Shown piece by piece: positions 1,288-14,086 of a DNA stretch of 32,000 nucleotides. Within the stretch, counting starts at the first letter, position 1. Each line of letters opens with the position of its first letter. Both the position numbers and the translations under genes were made by a program. Source of the DNA: Candidatus Saccharimonadota bacterium (GTDB taxonomy: Bacteria; Patescibacteriota; Saccharimonadia; Saccharimonadales; UBA4665); assembly GCA_963718045.1 (NCBI GenBank), contig OY970350.1:732077-764076 (forward strand), in the 5' to 3' direction. The notes beneath the pieces were generated by a model. The model was not told the DNA's origin and made no database searches. It worked only from the letters and a program-made list of their open reading frames with translations.

Positions 1288-2181
1288 CTAGCGCTCTAGA
1301 TGCTCGAGTGCCAAATTGTCTTTTGAAGAAGTTATTACCCAGGAATTATAGACATCCACTTTATGTTTTGGACCAATAGTTTTAAGCTGCACGTTAAGTC
1401 TTTCAATGGTCATACGGTCAAACTCGCTTAAGCCATTTTGCCGCAGCCAACTAGCTAGAAGTTCTTTGCCTAGTGAATAATCTAGGCTGTTTAAAAATAG
1501 TCTGGGCAGCTGGTTGTGACTTAAATTAGCTTTTAAAATTTCAGCTAAATCCTTATCGATTTGCTCATTTAAGGCTTGCTGTTTGTTAATAATATCTAGC
1601 AGTCTAGTCCGGCTTTTATTATCTAATTTAGGAACAATTTGGCGGCGGATATAATTCCTTAAATACTTGACGTCTTGGTTGGTGGGATCTTCATGCCAAG
1701 TTAAATTATGTTTTAAAGCATAGTTTGTAATATCCTTTTTAGAATAAACGAGAAGTGGCCGAAGAATTGTTTTGTTTGAAGAAAGTGAGCTTAAACCTTT
1801 CCTGCCCGTCCCGCGGATAATATTAATGATGGCTGTTTCAATTTGGTCATCCTGGTGGTGAGCAGTTATTAAACCGTCTGCTTTTTCTTTTTTAACTACT
1901 TCGTTTAAAAAGGCATACCGGGCATTTCTGGCTTCTTCTTCACTAGCCTTTTGACCTAAATGGCCTTCGCCGTAGTAGAACTTAAAACCATAGTTTTTGG
2001 CTAATTGTTCGACAAACAACCGATCTTTTTTAGAATCGTTTCTAATACCGTGGTCGAAGTGGGCAACAACCAACTCTAAATTGTCTTTTGGCAGATCAGT
2101 TAACAAACTTAGCAGAACGACAGAATCAACCCCGCCGCTAACTGCAACAACGTATTTACCTTTTATCTTCTCAAGCCTCAT
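1288..2181 (-). CDS. tilS: tRNA(Ile)-lysidine synthetase TilS (short form, 297 aa)
   Basis: N-terminal PP-loop motif [16 protein letters not shown], plus HFDHGIR and [21 protein letters not shown], typical of TilS. Position upstream of ftsH. Confidence 0.9.
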
Positions 2182-2248: not shown

Positions 2249-2325
2249 GGCGGCGTAGCTCAGCTGGTTAGAGCACAGGACTCATAAGCCTGGGGTCAGT
2301 GGTTCAAGTCCACTCGCCGCTACCA
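2249..2325 (+). tRNA. tRNA-Met(CAU), elongator-like, CCA encoded
   Basis: Cloverleaf read by eye: acceptor GGCGGCG/CGCCGCT (G1-U72), D arm GCTC-AGCTGGTTA-GAGC, anticodon arm CAGGA-CTCATAA-GCCTG (A31/G39 mismatch), variable GGGTC, T arm AGTGG-TTCAAGT-CCACT, then ACCA. The GAGCACA..ACTCATAA....GGGGTCA pattern resembles elongator tRNA-Met as I recall it. A TATAAT box lies at 2233..2238. Confidence 0.85.
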
Positions 2326-3984: not shown

Positions 3985-4530
3985 ATGAAAAGGCTGTATT
4001 TCGTAAGACATGGCGAGACTGAGATGAATGTCGGCGGGTATTATTCAGGACGAATCGAAACACCGTTAACATCTACGGGGGTTTCGCAAGCCAAAGCAAC
4101 AGGTAAAAATCTCAAGCAAAAAAACTTAAGAATCGACTTAATTGTCAGCTCGCCACTTTCTAGAGCACACCACACAGCAGAGCTAATTGCAAAAGAGCTA
4201 GGTTATCCAAAAGATAAAATCCAGTTTAACAAACTGTTTGTTGAAAGGTCATTTGGAGACATGGAGGGGGTATCTTGGGCAAAATTCATGGAGAAAGATA
4301 TGGATAATGTAAAAAACGTTGAAACTGTTGCCGAACTTCATAATAGAGCAATGAATGCTCTTAAGTATCTAAATTCATTAAAAGAAGACAATGTACTTGT
4401 AGTCAGTCATGGAAGTTTCGGTAGAGCTTTATATCGAGTAGTAAATAAACTGCCACACCACCTGGAACATGACGATAAACACAGAAATAGTTTTAGAATT
4501 GGCAATGCTGAGATAGTCGAACTTATATAG
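3985..4530 (+). CDS. histidine phosphatase family protein (phosphoglycerate-mutase-like)
   Basis: LYFVRHGETEMN (RHGxT motif), SSPLSRAHHTA and VVSHGSF (second catalytic His). I prefer the ATG at 3985 over the TTG at 3967 used by the ORF track. Confidence 0.85.
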   Translation: MKRLYFVRHGETEMNVGGYYSGRIETPLTSTGVSQAKATGKNLKQKNLRIDLIVSSPLSRAHHTAELIAKELGYPKDKIQFNKLFVERSFGDMEGVSWAKFMEKDMDNVKNVETVAELHNRAMNALKYLNSLKEDNVLVVSHGSFGRALYRVVNKLPHHLEHDDKHRNSFRIGNAEIVELI

Positions 4531-4796
4531 TCCTAATTAATGCATGGCCCGTATGCTACGAATAATTTATGCCTCAATTACTTTCCGGACAACTCAATAC
4601 TTGAGCTGCTTGGTCTTCCTCTTAAAGCTTAGTGAGTATCTTGTCTATGTCTCGTATGCCTTGGTCAGTACTAGTTACTAACTCAAAACCTATTTGTGAT
4701 TGGGTTTTCATATCTTTCCCTTTTTTTGTTTTTTGTTGATTAGATTTAATCTAATTAGCAATCATAGGGCTTATGATTAGCTTTGGCAAGAGTTTT

Positions 4797-5111
4797 TTAA
4801 AGATTTTTGGAAGATTTTTTAGAAGAGATAAAAATATAGACGGATACAAAGATAGCAACGAGTACTAAAATGGCTATCGGAATGAAGGCAGAGACGTTAT
4901 ATTGGGCAGTAGTTTTGCTTTCTGGCAAGTTTAGGGATGATGTTTTAAGTGAAGTAGTCGAGCTTAGTGGTATAGGTGAACCGGAAGACTGGGTATTTAT
5001 TGAGCTTAAACCGGTAGAGCTTTGAGGGTTTTGTTGGTTACCTGTTGAAAGTGAATTAGAGCCCGTACTTTGAGGGTTGCTTGTAGTTATACCGATGTTA
5101 TTATCCATCAC
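4797..5111 (-). CDS. Ser/Thr/Gln-rich protein with C-terminal TM anchor, hypothetical
   Basis: 104-aa ORF with a low-complexity S/T/Q-rich N-terminal part. The C-terminus has a hydrophobic helix IPIAILVLVAIFVSVYIFI plus the basic tail SSKKSSKNL. Confidence 0.45.
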   Translation of the reverse strand: MMDNNIGITTSNPQSTGSNSLSTGNQQNPQSSTGLSSINTQSSGSPIPLSSTTSLKTSSLNLPESKTTAQYNVSAFIPIAILVLVAIFVSVYIFISSKKSSKNL

Positions 5112-5221: not shown

Positions 5222-5296
5222 TGGTTGCGGGGGCAGGACTCGAACCTGCGACCTATTGGTTATGAGCCAATCGAGCTGCCGCTGCTCCACCCCGCG
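5222..5296 (-). tRNA. initiator tRNA-fMet(CAU), CCA encoded
   Basis: The minus strand reads CGCGGGG-TG-GAGC-AGCGGCA-GCTC-G-ATTGG-CTCATAA-CCAAT-AGGTC-GCAGG-TTCGAGT-CCTGC-CCCCGCA-A-CCA. It has the C1xA72 mismatch and the A11:U24 pair, both initiator hallmarks. Only two of the usual three G-C pairs are present at the base of the anticodon stem. Confidence 0.9.
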
Positions 5297-5356: not shown

Positions 5357-5803
5357 TCAGGACTGAGTGTTTCTGTGAAGGAAAAAGTTAATCCAAGCTT
5401 CGTAGTTTAGTTCATTGCTGTTATTAGTTGTCGCTGCTGATGAACTTGATGGCACATTCTTGGTATAGCTTAGAGCTACACTTGATGGCACTATAAGCTC
5501 AGTTTCACCAGGTGCAGCAAGTCCAAAGTTTTGGCGGGCAGATAATTCTAAGTATTGGTTAGATTTATAGTAGTTATTTTGGAGTGCAATAGTTGAATTT
5601 TGTAACTCGGAAACCTGGTTTTGTTGTTTAAGCTCAGTGACTTGCTTTTGAAGGCCGTAGTTAGACTGAATTGCTTTTGCTCCACTCCAGAATATTAGAA
5701 GTACTATGGCCATAAAGATTAATTGACCAGTAAATCTAATGTCACCAAATTTGGTTAGTTGGTGGGTTAGTTTTTGGGGGTAGTCTTTAAATTTTGATTT
5801 CAT
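5357..5803 (-). CDS. septum formation initiator FtsB/DivIC-like protein
   Basis: One TM helix, then a Q/N-rich coiled coil (LQKQVTELKQQNQVSELQN), then YLELSARQNFGLAAPGETELIV, which matches the conserved FtsB/DivIC C-terminal motif. The start is uncertain: ATG at 5803 or GTG at 5815. Confidence 0.7.
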   Translation of the reverse strand: MKSKFKDYPQKLTHQLTKFGDIRFTGQLIFMAIVLLIFWSGAKAIQSNYGLQKQVTELKQQNQVSELQNSTIALQNNYYKSNQYLELSARQNFGLAAPGETELIVPSSVALSYTKNVPSSSSAATTNNSNELNYEAWINFFLHRNTQS

Positions 5804-5877
5804 AGCAATTAACACTTTATATTATATAACTTTAGCTAAGTTCTGTTATACTTTTTATCTGTTAGGTAGCTAACAAT

Positions 5878-6156
5878 GGGGGCGTAGCTCATCGGTTAGA
5901 GCAGGCGGCTCAATAGGGCTGCTTACATGGGTAACCAGTAAGTATATCCTGCCAAATTCGGGGAAACCTTATACTTTCAAGTATTGGTAATCCCGAGCCA
6001 AGTCCTGTGTTAAACGGGAAAGGTGTAGAGACTGTACGGTAGGCATCCTTATGGATGAAGAGACAGTCCGGACCACAAACTCTTTACGAGGCAACGAAAG
6101 TTGTAGTGGCGTGCATAACCGCTTGGTGGTAGGTTCGATTCCTACCGCCCCCACCA
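5878..6156 (+). tRNA. intron-containing tRNA(CAU), Ile2-like; exons 5878..5910 and 6114..6156 give a 76-nt tRNA with encoded CCA
   Basis: The joined exons are GGGGGCG-TA-GCTC-ATCGGTTA-GAGC-A-GGCGG-CT|CATAA-CCGCT-TGGTG-GTAGG-TTCGATT-CCTAC-CGCCCCC-A-CCA, a perfect cloverleaf. The anticodon arm and variable loop (GAGCAGGCGxCTCATAAxCGCTTGGT) resemble ileX-type tRNA-Ile2 as I recall it. Confidence 0.85.
5911..6113 (+). ncRNA. group I intron (IC3-like, no ORF) inserted between U33 and C34 of the tRNA
   Basis: Helices found by eye in canonical order: P1 is exon CGGCU(5906..5910) with GGCTG(5917..5921), with a U.G pair at the splice site. P2 is CTTAC(5922..5926)/GTAAG(5938..5942). P3 is CCTGCC(5948..5953)/GGTAGG(6038..6043). 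P4 is TTCGGGG/CCCGAG. P7 is GACTGT(6030..6035)/ACAGTC(6063..6068). P8 is CATCC-TTAT-GGATG(6044..6057). There is a long P9 and a terminal G at 6113. The core strings AAATTCGGGGAAACC, CCCGAGCCAAG and AAGGTGTAGAGACT closely match the Azoarcus tRNA-Ile intron core as I recall it. Confidence 0.8.
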
Positions 6157-6208: not shown

Positions 6209-7201
6209 TTAAGCTACAACTCTTAATGCCTGCCTGCCAATATGCCTATCTCTATTTTTTTGAGTTAACTCAGTTGCTATTTGGTCCAGTTCGGGGACAG
6301 GAAAGGGCGGTGTGTTTCCGTCTCTAACGGCAGTGTCATTTAAGTGATTGAGTAGATCGTCATCTCGACGAAGAGGCGAGACGAAACCACCATAAGGGTT
6401 TAAACGCAATGATCCATGGCCAGTAGGTATGGTAGAAAATTCAGTGACTCCGAATAAGCTGTCTGGGATGTCTTCTTGAGGTTCATCAGGATTTTTACTG
6501 TCAGGTTCTAATTCAGATTTTGGCGGTCTTTGCTTTTGATTTCTATATATCCACGGTATGCCTTGTCTTAGTGCGTCTTTGGCAACCAAGTGATTGGCGG
6601 TAACCATCATCATCTGAACACTATATGGTGCTATATTTGTAGGAGGAGCTTTTAGACTGGCACCAATGTGCGGGCCAAGAAGTTTAGCAACTGTTGCAAT
6701 TCTAACGGCACGATCGTCTTCACTACGTATTAAGTTGTCAAATTCACTGTAGTCAGTAGTTAAGTAATCGGTCAACCTTGTACGCTGTAGACTATAGTTA
6801 AAGATTCCATCATTTTCTGGATCGAAGTCAAAACCGACTGTTACCGTTGGAATACCTGGACCATAAGGGTCAGCACCTAAGTTTAATAGCCCTCTATATA
6901 AACTTTGGGGTAACATAGCACCATTATCTTCGCTACGACTTTGAGCCGTTTTACTATATCTGCTCCAACCTCTTCGTCGGGCATTTTGAACTGCTAAAGA
7001 TTCTGGATCGATTATTCCACAGTCGACGATGTGAATTCCAACTTCCCAGAATCCATCATAATTCCAGTCTGCTCTTATAAAATCATCAATTTCTTGGGGT
7101 TTAGGTGAGTCAATCGCAATACCGGTTTCTGGAGGGCGATCTAATAGTTCTTTCTGAGAAAAATGCCAAGTGCCTTCGATGCATTCAGCTGAGACCGACA
7201 T
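6209..7201 (-). CDS. stand-alone RNB-domain (RNase II/R catalytic domain-like) protein
   Basis: The ordered motifs resemble RNB motifs I-IV: GIAIDSPKPQEIDDFI (cf. IDxxxxxDxDDA), GIHIVDCG (cf. HIADV), PTVTVGFDFDPENDGIFNYSLQRTRL, and GFVSPLRRDDDLLNHL (cf. TSPIRRYxDLxxH). At 330 aa there is no room for cold-shock or S1 domains. Confidence 0.55.
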   Translation of the reverse strand: MSVSAECIEGTWHFSQKELLDRPPETGIAIDSPKPQEIDDFIRADWNYDGFWEVGIHIVDCGIIDPESLAVQNARRRGWSRYSKTAQSRSEDNGAMLPQSLYRGLLNLGADPYGPGIPTVTVGFDFDPENDGIFNYSLQRTRLTDYLTTDYSEFDNLIRSEDDRAVRIATVAKLLGPHIGASLKAPPTNIAPYSVQMMMVTANHLVAKDALRQGIPWIYRNQKQRPPKSELEPDSKNPDEPQEDIPDSLFGVTEFSTIPTGHGSLRLNPYGGFVSPLRRDDDLLNHLNDTAVRDGNTPPFPVPELDQIATELTQKNRDRHIGRQALRVVA

Positions 7202-7361: not shown

Positions 7362-7988
7362 CTAAGGTTGAGGGAAAAGGTGTAGATTTTTCTCCAAAAT
7401 ACTGTATAGCTCATGATAATACTCTGCTATTTCAGGTGACGTTGGGATTTTCTTCTCTTTTTCTTCTGTAAATTTAGCAAATGTAATACCCAGCTTATGC
7501 CAAATACGTCCTTCATTAAGATAGTCCATGATTGCTGGCTGTAATTTATCTAAAGCATAAACAAACTTAGCTTCCTCACTCTGGCCTTTTTCGTACTCCG
7601 TAATAGCATCAGTCAAGTCCGGGAAATCTGCCCAGTTTCTTTTTAGCTTGACTATGGCCTTTCGTTCTCGATCTTTTTGGTCTCTAATAGCCTCTTTATC
7701 ATAGGAAAAAGTATCACCCGCATAGATTTCAACTATATCGTGAGCTAGACTAAGCTTAATCAACTTGCCGACATCTAGGTGGGGAAAAGAGGGTGCCAAA
7801 AACCACGCAATTATCGCCAGCGAGAAGCTATGGTCTATATCGTTCTCTGCTGTATCGACTGTAGGCGGTATACAGACCTTACGTTCTATTGAACCAAAAA
7901 CCAATAACATACTCTGTAAATCAATAATCCGTTTAACGGTAGGCTTGCTGATGGGTGCTGACTTGTCCATTAGTTTAAAATTATACAT
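7362..7988 (-). CDS. HD-domain phosphohydrolase (YfbR/HD_3-like)
   Basis: ENDIDHSFSLAIIAWFLA (first His) and LSLAHDIVEIYAGDT (HD...D motif) fit the YfbR-type HD hydrolase pattern. Confidence 0.8.
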   Translation of the reverse strand: MYNFKLMDKSAPISKPTVKRIIDLQSMLLVFGSIERKVCIPPTVDTAENDIDHSFSLAIIAWFLAPSFPHLDVGKLIKLSLAHDIVEIYAGDTFSYDKEAIRDQKDRERKAIVKLKRNWADFPDLTDAITEYEKGQSEEAKFVYALDKLQPAIMDYLNEGRIWHKLGITFAKFTEEKEKKIPTSPEIAEYYHELYSILEKNLHLFPQP

Positions 7989-7996
7989 CTACTAAG

Positions 7997-8018
7997 ATGG
8001 TTCTAACTTGGTTCGGTA
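7997..8018. repeat. direct repeat copy 2 (ATGGTTCTAACTTGGTTCGGTA), spanning the dus stop codon and the dus-HD junction
   Basis: Matches 7327..7348. It contains the last codons of dus (ACC GAA CCA AGT TAG = TEPS*). Confidence 0.7.
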
Positions 8019-8986
8019 TACTTCACCGCTTGTTCGTCTATTAGACTTAGAAGTTCATCAAAATCTTTAGCGGCCATTAACTTTTCTCGTATTTCACTTG
8101 CCCCTTCAAAGTTATTTATGTAAACCTTACAAAACTTATTAAGTATCTTGACTGGCCTGGTTGATCCCCATGTCTTATGAAACAACTCTACATGATACTT
8201 AAACAGTCCTAGTTTTTGTTCTTTGGTCATATCTTGCCAAGGACTATTTTTAGAAAAAATATACGGGTCATTAAATATCCCCCGGCCAATCATGATACCG
8301 TCTAATTTATACTCTTTAGCTAATTTTTCAGCCTGTTCTCTGCTTAATACATCGCCGTTACCAACGATTAGAGTATTAGGAGATACTTTGTCTCTAAGCT
8401 TCCCGATTTCACCTATAACCTGCCAGTTGGCTGGTACTTTGCTCATTTCTGTCCGTGTTCGTCCGTGAATAATCAGCATGTCTAGGTCTTGATTTAATAA
8501 GAACTCATGCCAGCTTAGGTCAATTTCATAAAAGCCTAGTCTTGTTTTAACGCTAATGGGCAGTTTGCCTTTTGCGCCTTTCTTGGTAGCCTGGATAATT
8601 TCTTGTGCTAAAGGCCGGTTATTCATCAGGCCGCTGCAGGCCCCATTAGAAACGACATCTTTAACAGGACAGCCCATGTTTACGTCTATGCCAGCAAAAT
8701 CACCATATACTCCAGCAACTATTTCTTTAGCGCACAACATATAATTCTCAGGTTTTAAGCCCCATACTTGGGCTATCAGAGGTTGATCAATATCTGTATG
8801 GTTTAGCTTAATCCTTACTTTATCTCTACCTTTACTCTGAAGACCATCGACGTTAACAAATTCACTGAAAAATAGATCTGGTTTAGCACATTTGGCTACT
8901 ATCTGTCTAAAAACAGTGTCAGTGACTTCGTCCATTGGCGCAAGTATAAAGAAGGGTTTTGCTAAACTGCTCAGTTTATTACTCAT
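8003..8986 (-). CDS. dus: tRNA-dihydrouridine synthase
   Basis: ILAPMDEVTDTVFRQIV, GIDVNMGCPVKDV (catalytic Cys loop) and IIHGRTR are Dus-family hallmarks. Confidence 0.9.
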   Translation of the reverse strand: MSNKLSSLAKPFFILAPMDEVTDTVFRQIVAKCAKPDLFFSEFVNVDGLQSKGRDKVRIKLNHTDIDQPLIAQVWGLKPENYMLCAKEIVAGVYGDFAGIDVNMGCPVKDVVSNGACSGLMNNRPLAQEIIQATKKGAKGKLPISVKTRLGFYEIDLSWHEFLLNQDLDMLIIHGRTRTEMSKVPANWQVIGEIGKLRDKVSPNTLIVGNGDVLSREQAEKLAKEYKLDGIMIGRGIFNDPYIFSKNSPWQDMTKEQKLGLFKYHVELFHKTWGSTRPVKILNKFCKVYINNFEGASEIREKLMAAKDFDELLSLIDEQAVKYTEPS

Positions 8987-13861: not shown

Positions 13862-14086
13862 ATGGCCGAAGCAAATAAGCCTTGGTTCAAACCCCTAAGA
13901 CATAGCTACATAGCCTGCAGTTATAAAGGCGCCTTGACCTATATACCTTACGTTACCTACCTCGTCTTTAGTCTGCTAGTCCCCTTCAACTACTTAAGCC
14001 ATAAAGTTTTAGCCGTCTTGATTGTCATACCCAACTGGATCATCGCTAGTCAGGTAATGACTTGGCTAGCTAAAAGTAAGTCTTAA
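13862..14086 (+). CDS. small two-TM membrane protein, hypothetical
   Basis: 74-aa ORF starting 9 nt after the previous stop, with two hydrophobic segments. Confidence 0.4.
   Translation: MAEANKPWFKPLRHSYIACSYKGALTYIPYVTYLVFSLLVPFNYLSHKVLAVLIVIPNWIIASQVMTWLAKSKS

Follow-up and report, generated by a model that had tools for sequence, protein, structure and literature searches.

The locus at 5878-6156 of the 32-kb window (the whole stretch of 32,000 nucleotides that was analysed) raises the question of what divides a tRNA gene with a CAU anticodon in the middle of its anticodon loop, which tRNA is affected, and how the insert came to be there. We read it as a group I intron of type Ile2.2Ug, lying between U33 and C34 of a tRNA-Ile2 gene, and we give this reading as a whole, with the mechanism and history proposed below, a probability of about 0.9. 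ARAGORN with its intron option (-i) reports a 76-nt tRNA(cat) at 5878-6156 with a 203-nt intron ('Intron Insertion Position(33-34): cggct-Intron-cataa'), so that the coordinates proposed in the earlier note for the two tRNA halves and the insert hold. In its default mode ARAGORN misses the split gene and calls only the CAU tRNAs at 2249-2325 (+) and 5222-5296 (-) in the window; default tRNA finders would overlook the gene, and the genome would then seem to be without an AUA decoder. The gene is made up of the following parts.

5878-5910, plus strand: 5' exon of tRNA-Ile2(CAU), 33 nt, called by ARAGORN -i and present with the same sequence in the intronless allele of relative L127; it holds the acceptor 5' strand, the D arm, the anticodon-stem 5' strand, C32 and U33, with U5910 as U-1
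5911-6113, plus strand: group I intron, 203 nt, IC3-like and ORF-less, on the evidence of RF00028, a custom model and the exact empty site in L127
6113, plus strand: omega G (terminal guanosine), preceding the 3' splice site, read from the sequence
6114-6156, plus strand: 3' exon of tRNA-Ile2(CAU), 43 nt, called by ARAGORN -i; it holds the anticodon CAU (C34 = 6114), A37, A38, the anticodon-stem 3' strand, the variable loop, the T arm, the acceptor 3' strand, the discriminator A and an encoded CCA

The Rfam model Intron_gpI (RF00028), with which the earlier note had proposed to search, matches 5899-6090 on the plus strand over its full length (1-253) with 67.6 bits and an E-value of 2.6e-15, above the gathering score of 50 bits. 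The match ends before the 3' end of the intron because the model leaves out the last part of P9 and the terminal G; Williams (2020; bioRxiv 10.1101/2020.01.27.920355) likewise points out that the terminal G is not part of the Rfam search. With a custom covariance model of its own lineage the intron scores 202 bits. A natural empty site was found in L127, a close relative (TilS protein 93% identical, flanking DNA ~94-95% identical) with the same Dus-RNB-tRNA-DivIC gene order, in which the uninterrupted tRNA, at 4754-4829 of L127, is 100% identical to the joined exons of the window. The blast alignment of the two breaks at window positions 5912|6114, and the empty-site comparison alone leaves a 2-nt (CA) boundary ambiguity, within which the rule of U-1 and a terminal G selects 5910|5911 and 6113|6114. 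The intron is thereby fixed at 5911-6113.

The insert follows the full group I order P1-P2-P3-P4-P5-P6-P7-P3'-P8-P7'-P9, as had been proposed from the sequence by eye, and both RF00028 and covariation agree with it. The elements of the fold, all on the plus strand, are these.

5903-5924, plus strand: P1 hairpin, from sequence, Rfam alignment and centroid fold
5925-5939, plus strand: P2, 5 bp with A5927 bulged and a GNRA tetraloop, GUAA (5931-5934)
5948-5953, plus strand: P3 5' strand, CCUGCC, with its partner at 6038-6043
5954-5997, plus strand: J3/4 (AAA), P4, J4/5, P5, P5a and J5/4, from the Rfam alignment
5957-5962 with 5992-5997, plus strand: P4, from the Rfam alignment
5967-5968 with 5986-5987, plus strand: P5, from the Rfam alignment
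5971-5974 with 5981-5984, plus strand: P5a hairpin, of variable length
5998-6023, plus strand: P6 (CC/GG) and the P6a hairpin (6003-6007 with 6015-6019)
6028-6034, plus strand: P7 5' strand, GAGACUG, with A6029 bulged
6038-6043, plus strand: P3 3' strand, GGUAGG, forming a pseudoknot with P7
6044-6057, plus strand: P8 hairpin, CAUCC-UUAU-GGAUG
6058-6069, plus strand: J8/7 (AAGAGA) and P7 3' strand (CAGUCC), from the Rfam alignment and alignment A2
6072-6110, plus strand: P9 three-way domain, with P9 itself at 6073-6076 with 6106-6109
6080-6082 with 6088-6090, plus strand: P9a, with loop UUUAC
6091-6095 with 6100-6104, plus strand: P9b, with a GAAA loop at 6096-6099

P1 consists of 9 bp (5903-5911 with 5916-5924) in which exon bases 5903-5910 and the first intron base, C5911, pair with the internal guide sequence GGGCUGCUU, which is invariant across 56 relatives. 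The U5910•G5917 wobble marks the 5' splice site; this U•G pair and the terminal G at 6113 had both been noticed before, and the boundaries they imply match the empty site of L127. L1 is only 4 nt long (AAUA, 5912-5915), and the same loop houses an HNH ORF in relatives. Within P7 lies G6030-C6068, which homology to other group I introns points to as the guanosine-binding pair. For P9.0 we examined 6070-6072 against 6110-6112 and found no convincing pairing; the correlated changes seen near this position (CCAG...GGUAC versus CCGG...GGCGU) are not Watson-Crick compensatory. A P10 between the 3' exon CAUAA and the bases 5' of the guide likewise gave no convincing pairing, with at most 1 bp.

Covariation was assessed in two alignments. 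A1 comprises 50 distinct introns of the same sublineage, drawn from the metagenome scan described below and two Saccharibacteria genomes. Standard pairs fill 95.0% of its cells, a share that drops to 28-42% once the 3' partners are slid out of register by 1-3 columns; changes on both sides (compensatory) occur at 27 of 54 pairs, and none of 500 shuffles reached as high a value on any measure. A2 comprises 101 tRNA introns from many phyla, all of which the custom model scores at E <= 6e-7; since it was aligned with the covariance model built on A1, its counts (95.3% of cells paired versus 29-47% for slid controls, and 36 of 50 pairs compensatory) lean toward the structure for all helices but P7.

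Support is spread over the individual helices. In A1, compensatory changes are found at four of the five pairs of P2 (98.4% paired), four of five in P8 (98.8%) and all five in P6a (96.8%), and they are also present in P9, P9a and P9b, which are 94-97% paired. P3 is paired in 99.7% of cells in A1 and 99.5% in A2, where four of its six pairs are compensatory; P8 likewise has four compensatory pairs there. P4 is without variation among close relatives and has three compensatory pairs across IC3 introns in A2. P7, although outside the custom model, is 99.8% paired in the 101 introns of A2, with one compensatory pair; its distal pair occurs as four types (AU 55, GC 21, UA 15, CG 8). P5a is only 64% paired in A1 because MAFFT misaligns this length-variable hairpin, and we do not count the low value against the P5a of the window, which the energy fold recovers. 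That pseudoknot-free fold also returns P1, P2, P4, P5, P6a, P7, P8, P9a and P9b, with z = -2.81 versus shuffles.

From sublineage columns that are at least 85% conserved the window departs at two places. In P3, two positions have changed with pairing kept (U•G to C-G and G-C to G•U). In L9a, 45 of 49 relatives have GAAA and the window has UUUAC, a replacement that could weaken a tertiary contact. To judge by these comparisons, the catalytic core of the window intron is intact and one peripheral tetraloop has been lost. An endonuclease-like ORF was not found in the insert, whose longest frames (77 aa antisense, 53 aa sense) both extend into the exons; the earlier statement that no homing-endonuclease ORF is carried is thus borne out. 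With its 4-nt L1 and no intron-encoded endonuclease, the intron is not an autonomous mobile one.

Which CAU tRNA is interrupted had been left at the anticodon, and a more precise identity can be given. Joining the exons yields a tRNA that is called as normal, although the cloverleaf is not quite 'flawless', as it had been described: pair 27-43 is G•U, a known feature of tRNA-Ile2. ARAGORN labels the gene tRNA-Met, an elongator tRNA-Met host is itself a type recognised by Williams ('Met.2Ug'), and the acceptor pairs 4-69 and 5-68, which are G-C in the window tRNA, differ from the C-G pairs that E. coli TilS recognises there. An elongator tRNA-Met is nevertheless an improbable host. The top E. 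coli matches of the spliced sequence are annotated as tRNA-Ile (83.6% over bases 8-62), and it combines G27•U43 with G1-C72; G27•U43 is characteristic of E. coli tRNA-Ile2, the E. coli tRNA-Met having C27-G43 (Ikeuchi et al. 2008, PMC2500205). It is the tRNA at 2249-2325 that has the features of tRNA-Met, namely C27-G43 and G44, and its top E. coli matches are tRNA-Met. The third CAU tRNA (5222-5296) begins with CGCGGGG and terminates in CCCCGCAA, which gives the C1 x A72 mismatch of an initiator, and is intronless. All three CAU types, Met, fMet and Ile2, are thus represented once in the window, which also contains tilS. On these features the interrupted gene is a tRNA-Ile2 (lysidine type), not a tRNA-Met, and the short-form TilS of this genome may recognise it differently from E. 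coli TilS.

Two further readings deny that the intron is real or that it is still in use. An inactive relic, in a pseudogene copy whose function is supplied by another tRNA-Ile2 gene, would suit the missing ORF and the lost L9a tetraloop, and yet we regard it as very improbable: no core element is damaged, and where paired positions depart from the family consensus the pairs are preserved. In L199, a syntenic but more distant relative (just 66% identity to the window in the RNB protein next to the tRNA), the tRNA exons are the same (100%) and the intron (204 nt) is 96.6% identical, all seven differences lying in loops or junctions or keeping the pairing (A-U to G•U). In reduced Saccharimonadia genomes, moreover, each tRNA is as a rule encoded by a single gene. 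An assembly artefact or chimera might be suspected from contig L005, which ends within the intron, and from L003, which diverges at the 3' end of the tRNA. It deserves practically no weight, as the 203-nt insert recurs with 0 mismatches in three independent assemblies from different samples (L001, L002 and L004), dozens of homologous copies exist elsewhere besides that of L199, and the natural empty site in L127 rules an artefact out.

The enzyme expected to act on the spliced tRNA-Ile2 is encoded nearby.

1288-2181, minus strand: tilS, tRNA-Ile lysidine synthetase, short form of 297 aa (TIGR02432, 8.7e-57; homologs named TilS)

Homologs of this protein with 51-68% identity carry the name 'Candidatus Saccharimonadales bacterium', and genomes with the same intron lineage are titled Candidatus Saccharibacteria. 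On the strength of these names the host is a member of the Saccharimonadales, in keeping with the Patescibacteria-type genome suspected from the sequence. Two contigs with TilS homologs (P0002 and P0011) were too short or lacked conserved synteny and were excluded from the intron comparison.

We propose the following course of maturation for the intron-bearing tRNA-Ile2. The precursor would pair C32-U33 and the 5' anticodon-stem strand with the guide GGGCUGCUU as P1, in place of the anticodon stem; because P1 uses this strand, the intron fold and the tRNA fold would exclude each other before splicing. Free guanosine bound in P7 is predicted, by established group I chemistry, to attack after U5910. 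G6113 would next take the place of the guanosine in the P7 site, and the freed 3'-OH of U33 would attack after G6113, joining CU to CAUAA and giving a 76-nt tRNA with its encoded CCA. TilS, encoded 3.7 kb away, would then convert C34 to lysidine, so that the tRNA could be charged with isoleucine and read AUA. As the intron lies directly 5' of C34, lysidine formation by TilS would have to follow splicing. We infer both the catalytic activity and this order of steps from the analysis of the locus; if they hold, an essential tRNA of this reduced genome is matured only by way of a predicted ribozyme step that precedes the action of TilS on C34.

Group I introns of this kind are well documented. 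Williams (2020) mapped 5292 tRNA genes split by group I introns and added 17 new types to the classical Leu.3Ug, Arg.5Ug, fMet.2Ug and Ile2.5Ug, the four of which are marked IC3 in a group I intron database; the types include 'Ile2.2Ug' and 'Met.2Ug' (seeds Gba28.Ile2.2Ug and Sba135.Met.2Ug), and 'Metagenomic assemblies from unnamed phyla' rank second, with 0.49 split genes per genome. In complete CPR genomes, too, group I introns of tRNA genes have been noted (Lui et al. 2021). The window intron is 74-83% identical over aligned columns to seven of the bacterial tRNA-intron seeds of Williams, including the four classical ones, and has no P2.1, no P5abc extension and a short P2 with a GNRA loop, which is IC3 architecture. 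By sequence and fold we place it in subgroup IC3, and with a tRNA-Ile2 host, an insertion after the second base of the anticodon loop, U-1 and a terminal G it is of Williams type Ile2.2Ug.

Individual seeds differ in what they share with the window. The Ile2.2Ug seed Gba28 has the same isotype (Ile2, CAU), site (33/34), U-1 and terminal G, and is likewise small and ORF-less; its core, however, is divergent (UAUAUCGGUAAAA..., GUAGAGACUAUAC), and at 61% of query positions it is the least identical of the seeds compared, fMet.2Ug, Met.2Ug and Arg.5Ug reaching 72-79%. This marks the Saccharimonadia introns as a different lineage at the same site. The cyanobacterial tRNA-fMet intron (fMet.2Ug; Synechocystis PCC 6803, the host of I-Ssp6803I) shares the site CU|CAUAA and the IC3 core (Tpc1.fMet.2Ug is 82% identical over aligned columns), and its ORF occupies the P1 loop, as in the ORF-bearing relatives of the window intron. 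It differs in having an initiator host and a sense-strand PD-(D/E)XK endonuclease where the relatives have an antisense HNH gene; the window host, with G1-C72 in place of C1 x A72 and with its Ile2 features, falls outside the cyanobacterial fMet lineage. The crystallised IC3 ribozyme of Azoarcus sp. BH72 tRNA-Ile(CAU) (Ile2.5Ug) is of the same isotype, ~205 nt long and without ORF. The likeness of the core strings to Azoarcus and cyanobacterial introns, pointed out in the earlier note, is confirmed in the seeds, Azoarcus (Aol6.Ile2.5Ug) and the window having in common AAAUUCGG(C/G)GAAACC, CCGAGCCAAG and AAGGUGUAGAGACU. The Azoarcus intron nevertheless lies at 36/37, after the anticodon, a different site, as the earlier note had supposed, so that its P1 and guide sequence are unlike those of the window; its P9 is a single hairpin and not a three-way junction, and 63% of query positions are identical. 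The cyanobacterial and plastid tRNA-Leu(UAA) intron (Leu.3Ug) shares the IC3 core and the three-way P9 architecture but sits in another tRNA, at 34/35.

A scan of GTDB, with a single genome for each species and AAGGTGYAGAGACTNNACGG as the core string, found an IC3 core in at least 120 stretches from many phyla, including at least four from Saccharibacteria. Among the matches listed, tRNA-Leu(UAA) is the majority host (ARAGORN -i), the others being Arg, Phe, Thr, Lys, Ser, Ile(UAU) and CAU tRNAs, and the host groups are Acidobacteria, Nitrospirae, Bacteroidetes, Chloroflexi, Gemmatimonadales, Eremiobacterota, Alpha-, Beta- and Gammaproteobacteria, Cyanobacteria and Saccharibacteria. CAU tRNAs among these listed matches are split at two positions, either after the anticodon (Azoarcus type), as in the Betaproteobacteria (L012, L053, L092, L103, L114, L119), or at 33/34, where the split tRNAs are initiators in Nitrospirae and in Saccharibacteria L088/L096 and of Ile2 type in Saccharibacteria L007/L058.

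These records bear on the novelty claimed for the locus. The suggestion that the intron extends the known range of bacterial tRNA introns does not survive the Ile2.2Ug type of Williams, the CPR introns of Lui et al. and the GTDB scan, and site 33/34, though not that of Azoarcus, is where the classical tRNA-fMet introns of cyanobacteria lie. Earlier records cover tRNA group I introns of the same type, site and radiation. Current understanding is therefore unchanged: the intron type and its occurrence in the radiation had been catalogued, and the window adds a well-documented example, not a discovery.

The wider lineage of the intron was followed in metagenomes with a sublineage-specific string, which gave 64 loci, 55 of them parsed. 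All 55 are split at 33/34 in an Ile2-like 76/77-nt tRNA with encoded CCA and have U-1 and a terminal G before CAUAA, and 33 distinct exon sequences occur among them. The introns of these relatives range from 191 to 686 nt. Most are ~600 nt long and carry in the P1 loop an intact antisense ORF of ~123-136 aa with an N-terminal zinc-ribbon and a C-terminal CHNCHxExHNP motif. Searched against Pfam at E <= 0.01, the HNH-like ORFs gave no match; at E <= 1, one of four intact antisense ORFs matched HNH (PF01844) with 24.7 bits against a cut-off of 21.4. The shorter introns (444, 338, 312 ... 206, 203, 191 nt) have ORF fragments or none. In L046 and L126, whose introns lie in initiator tRNAs, the ORF is on the sense strand and homologous to I-Ssp6803I (PF11645, 1.9e-50; PDB 2OST, 2.8e-66). 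The intron lineage thus appears to be widespread in Saccharimonadia tRNA-Ile2 genes and usually to carry an antisense HNH homing-endonuclease gene. Since most relatives carry this gene, we infer that the ORF-less window copy is a stripped-down derivative of an HNH-bearing lineage, its ORF having been lost down to the 4-nt loop.

How the intron came to be present in the window and L199 and missing from L127 can be read in two ways. As the window and the more distant L199 both carry it and the nearer L127 is without it, the simplest history suggested by the data is that the intron was present ancestrally and then precisely lost in L127. A recent horizontal gain in the window and L199 lineages, by homing with an HNH enzyme supplied in trans, would fit the observation that the intron is far more similar (96.6%) than the flanking proteins (66%), and HNH-bearing copies of the same lineage do occur in related tRNAs with near-identical exons, L190 for example. 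The exons, however, are conserved equally (100%), so that the high identity can reflect selection; the intron has no endonuclease gene of its own; and a co-conversion signature is missing, the exons being the same in intron-plus and intron-minus alleles. The window and L199 also share the clade-specific P3 and L9a states, which are partly present in L135 as well. We consider horizontal gain unlikely, though worth keeping in mind, and prefer ancestral presence with loss in L127, for which the window, L199 and L127 make a clean natural case suggesting precise intron loss.

More tentatively, and with somewhat less than even confidence, the tRNA-Ile2 gene of Saccharibacteria may serve, across the lineage, as a hot spot for a single IC3 family with an antisense HNH gene in its P1 loop. 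Were this so, every stage from invasion through decay and loss of the ORF to precise loss of the intron would be visible (from 686 to 191 nt and on to L127), with the window copy as the ORF-less end state, and the intron might persist by shielding the only AUA-decoder gene from circulating HNH enzymes. The wider lineage would then display the full life cycle of a homing endonuclease in an uncultivated phylum. Tsurumaki (2024) reported that group I introns and homing endonucleases are nearly missing from the rRNA genes of Saccharibacteria. In the searchable literature we found no description of a Saccharimonadia-wide tRNA-Ile2 lineage with antisense HNH, nor of its contrast with these near intron-free rRNA genes.

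Some minor observations concern the scans. Ten of the 64 metagenome relatives were called tRNA-Leu(CAA) with an intron after base 36 by ARAGORN -i, a mislabel that arises because those ten introns begin with CAA. An incomplete Planctomycetales contig (L055) from the GTDB scan, unparsed, has an initiator-like 5' half followed by the start of an intron. At the window locus, the promoter and terminator scan found no terminator and gave a weak sigma-70-like promoter match at 5794-5823.

The guide sequence of the intron, GGGCUGCUU (positions 5916-5924 of the window; the same element in loci L135 to L198), does not vary in any of 56 copies, despite variation among hosts in the exon base at position -6. 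In most hosts, whose exon reads GCAGUCGGCU, the P1 helix formed by the tRNA 5' exon and the guide sequence carries a U x C mismatch at -6. Unlike these, the window exon, GCAGGCGGCU, forms a perfect P1 helix. The window intron also lacks the GAAA tetraloop that closes P9a in 45 of 49 relatives, having UUUAC at 6083-6087. This loss is specific to the clade of the window intron, because the nearest relatives are likewise without GAAA: the syntenic relative L199 has UUUAC and the metagenome locus L135 has AUAAUUUU.

In relatives of the window intron (L138-L198, most of the ~600-nt introns, and the genome loci L007, in the region 4491-5100, L030 and L125), the P1 loop contains an HNH-like ORF on the antisense strand. 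It encodes about 123-136 aa, with a zinc ribbon and the motif CHNCHxExHNP. The frame of many copies crosses the 5' splice site and extends, still antisense, into the 5' exon of the tRNA, where the C-terminal residues read ...LAKLSIEPTALTTEL...; in L007 and L125 the frame is broken and only remnants of the ORF are found. A second type of endonuclease is encoded by introns at site 33/34 of the initiator tRNA in two GTDB metagenome-assembled genomes, a Rhodothermales bacterium and an 'uncultured bacterium' (L046, L126). The products are clearly homologous to the homing endonuclease I-Ssp6803I of Cyanobacteria (PDB 2OST, E 2.8e-66), here in hosts from outside that phylum. Only C-terminal fragments of such a homolog are left in the Nitrospirae introns L018 and L085.

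When scored with a covariance model built from 50 introns of the sublineage, the best matches after the Saccharibacteria copies were two Chloroflexi introns, from Anaerolineae (L052, 172 bits) and Chloroflexia (L094, 161 bits), a hint of either inter-phylum transfer or mis-binning.

ARAGORN -i labelled 10 of the 64 metagenome Ile2-intron loci (L135, L143, L146, L176 and L192 among them) as tRNA-Leu(CAA) with an intron after base 36, and did the same for the genome loci L030 and L125, because these introns start with CAA. Requiring a U before the 5' splice site and a G as the last intron base recovers CAU and site 33/34. This mislabelling is a likely origin of wrong annotation in public genomes.

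The three kinds of CAU tRNA that make up a bacterial set (elongator Met, initiator and the split Ile2) are all found inside one 4-kb stretch of the window, and their neighbourhood includes:

1288-2181, minus strand, tilS, short 297-aa form (TIGR02432 match)
2249-2325, plus strand, elongator tRNA-Met (CAU), adjoining tilS and divergent from it
5222-5296, minus strand, initiator tRNA (CAU), intronless
6209-7201, minus strand, gene for an RNB-like 330-aa protein, adjoining tRNA-Ile2

The match of the short TilS is limited to TIGR02432, which models the N-terminal catalytic domain, so the enzyme may recognise the acceptor stem differently from its E. coli counterpart. The 330-aa protein matches RNB (RNase II/R) only weakly and in part, and a search of 5.8 billion proteins gave just four homologs, so it is a truncated exoribonuclease-like protein restricted to the lineage. 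A metagenome contig, L003 (ena:ERZ25039509:contig_67750), matches window positions 13986 down to 6152 with 100% identity and parts from the window there, within the 3' end of the tRNA-Ile2 gene. Beyond the break, which lies 402 nt from the contig end, L003 carries an unrelated beta-CASP/RMMBL gene fragment (7836-8237); the break may stem from chimeric assembly, or from a rearrangement or an integration event at this end of the tRNA gene.
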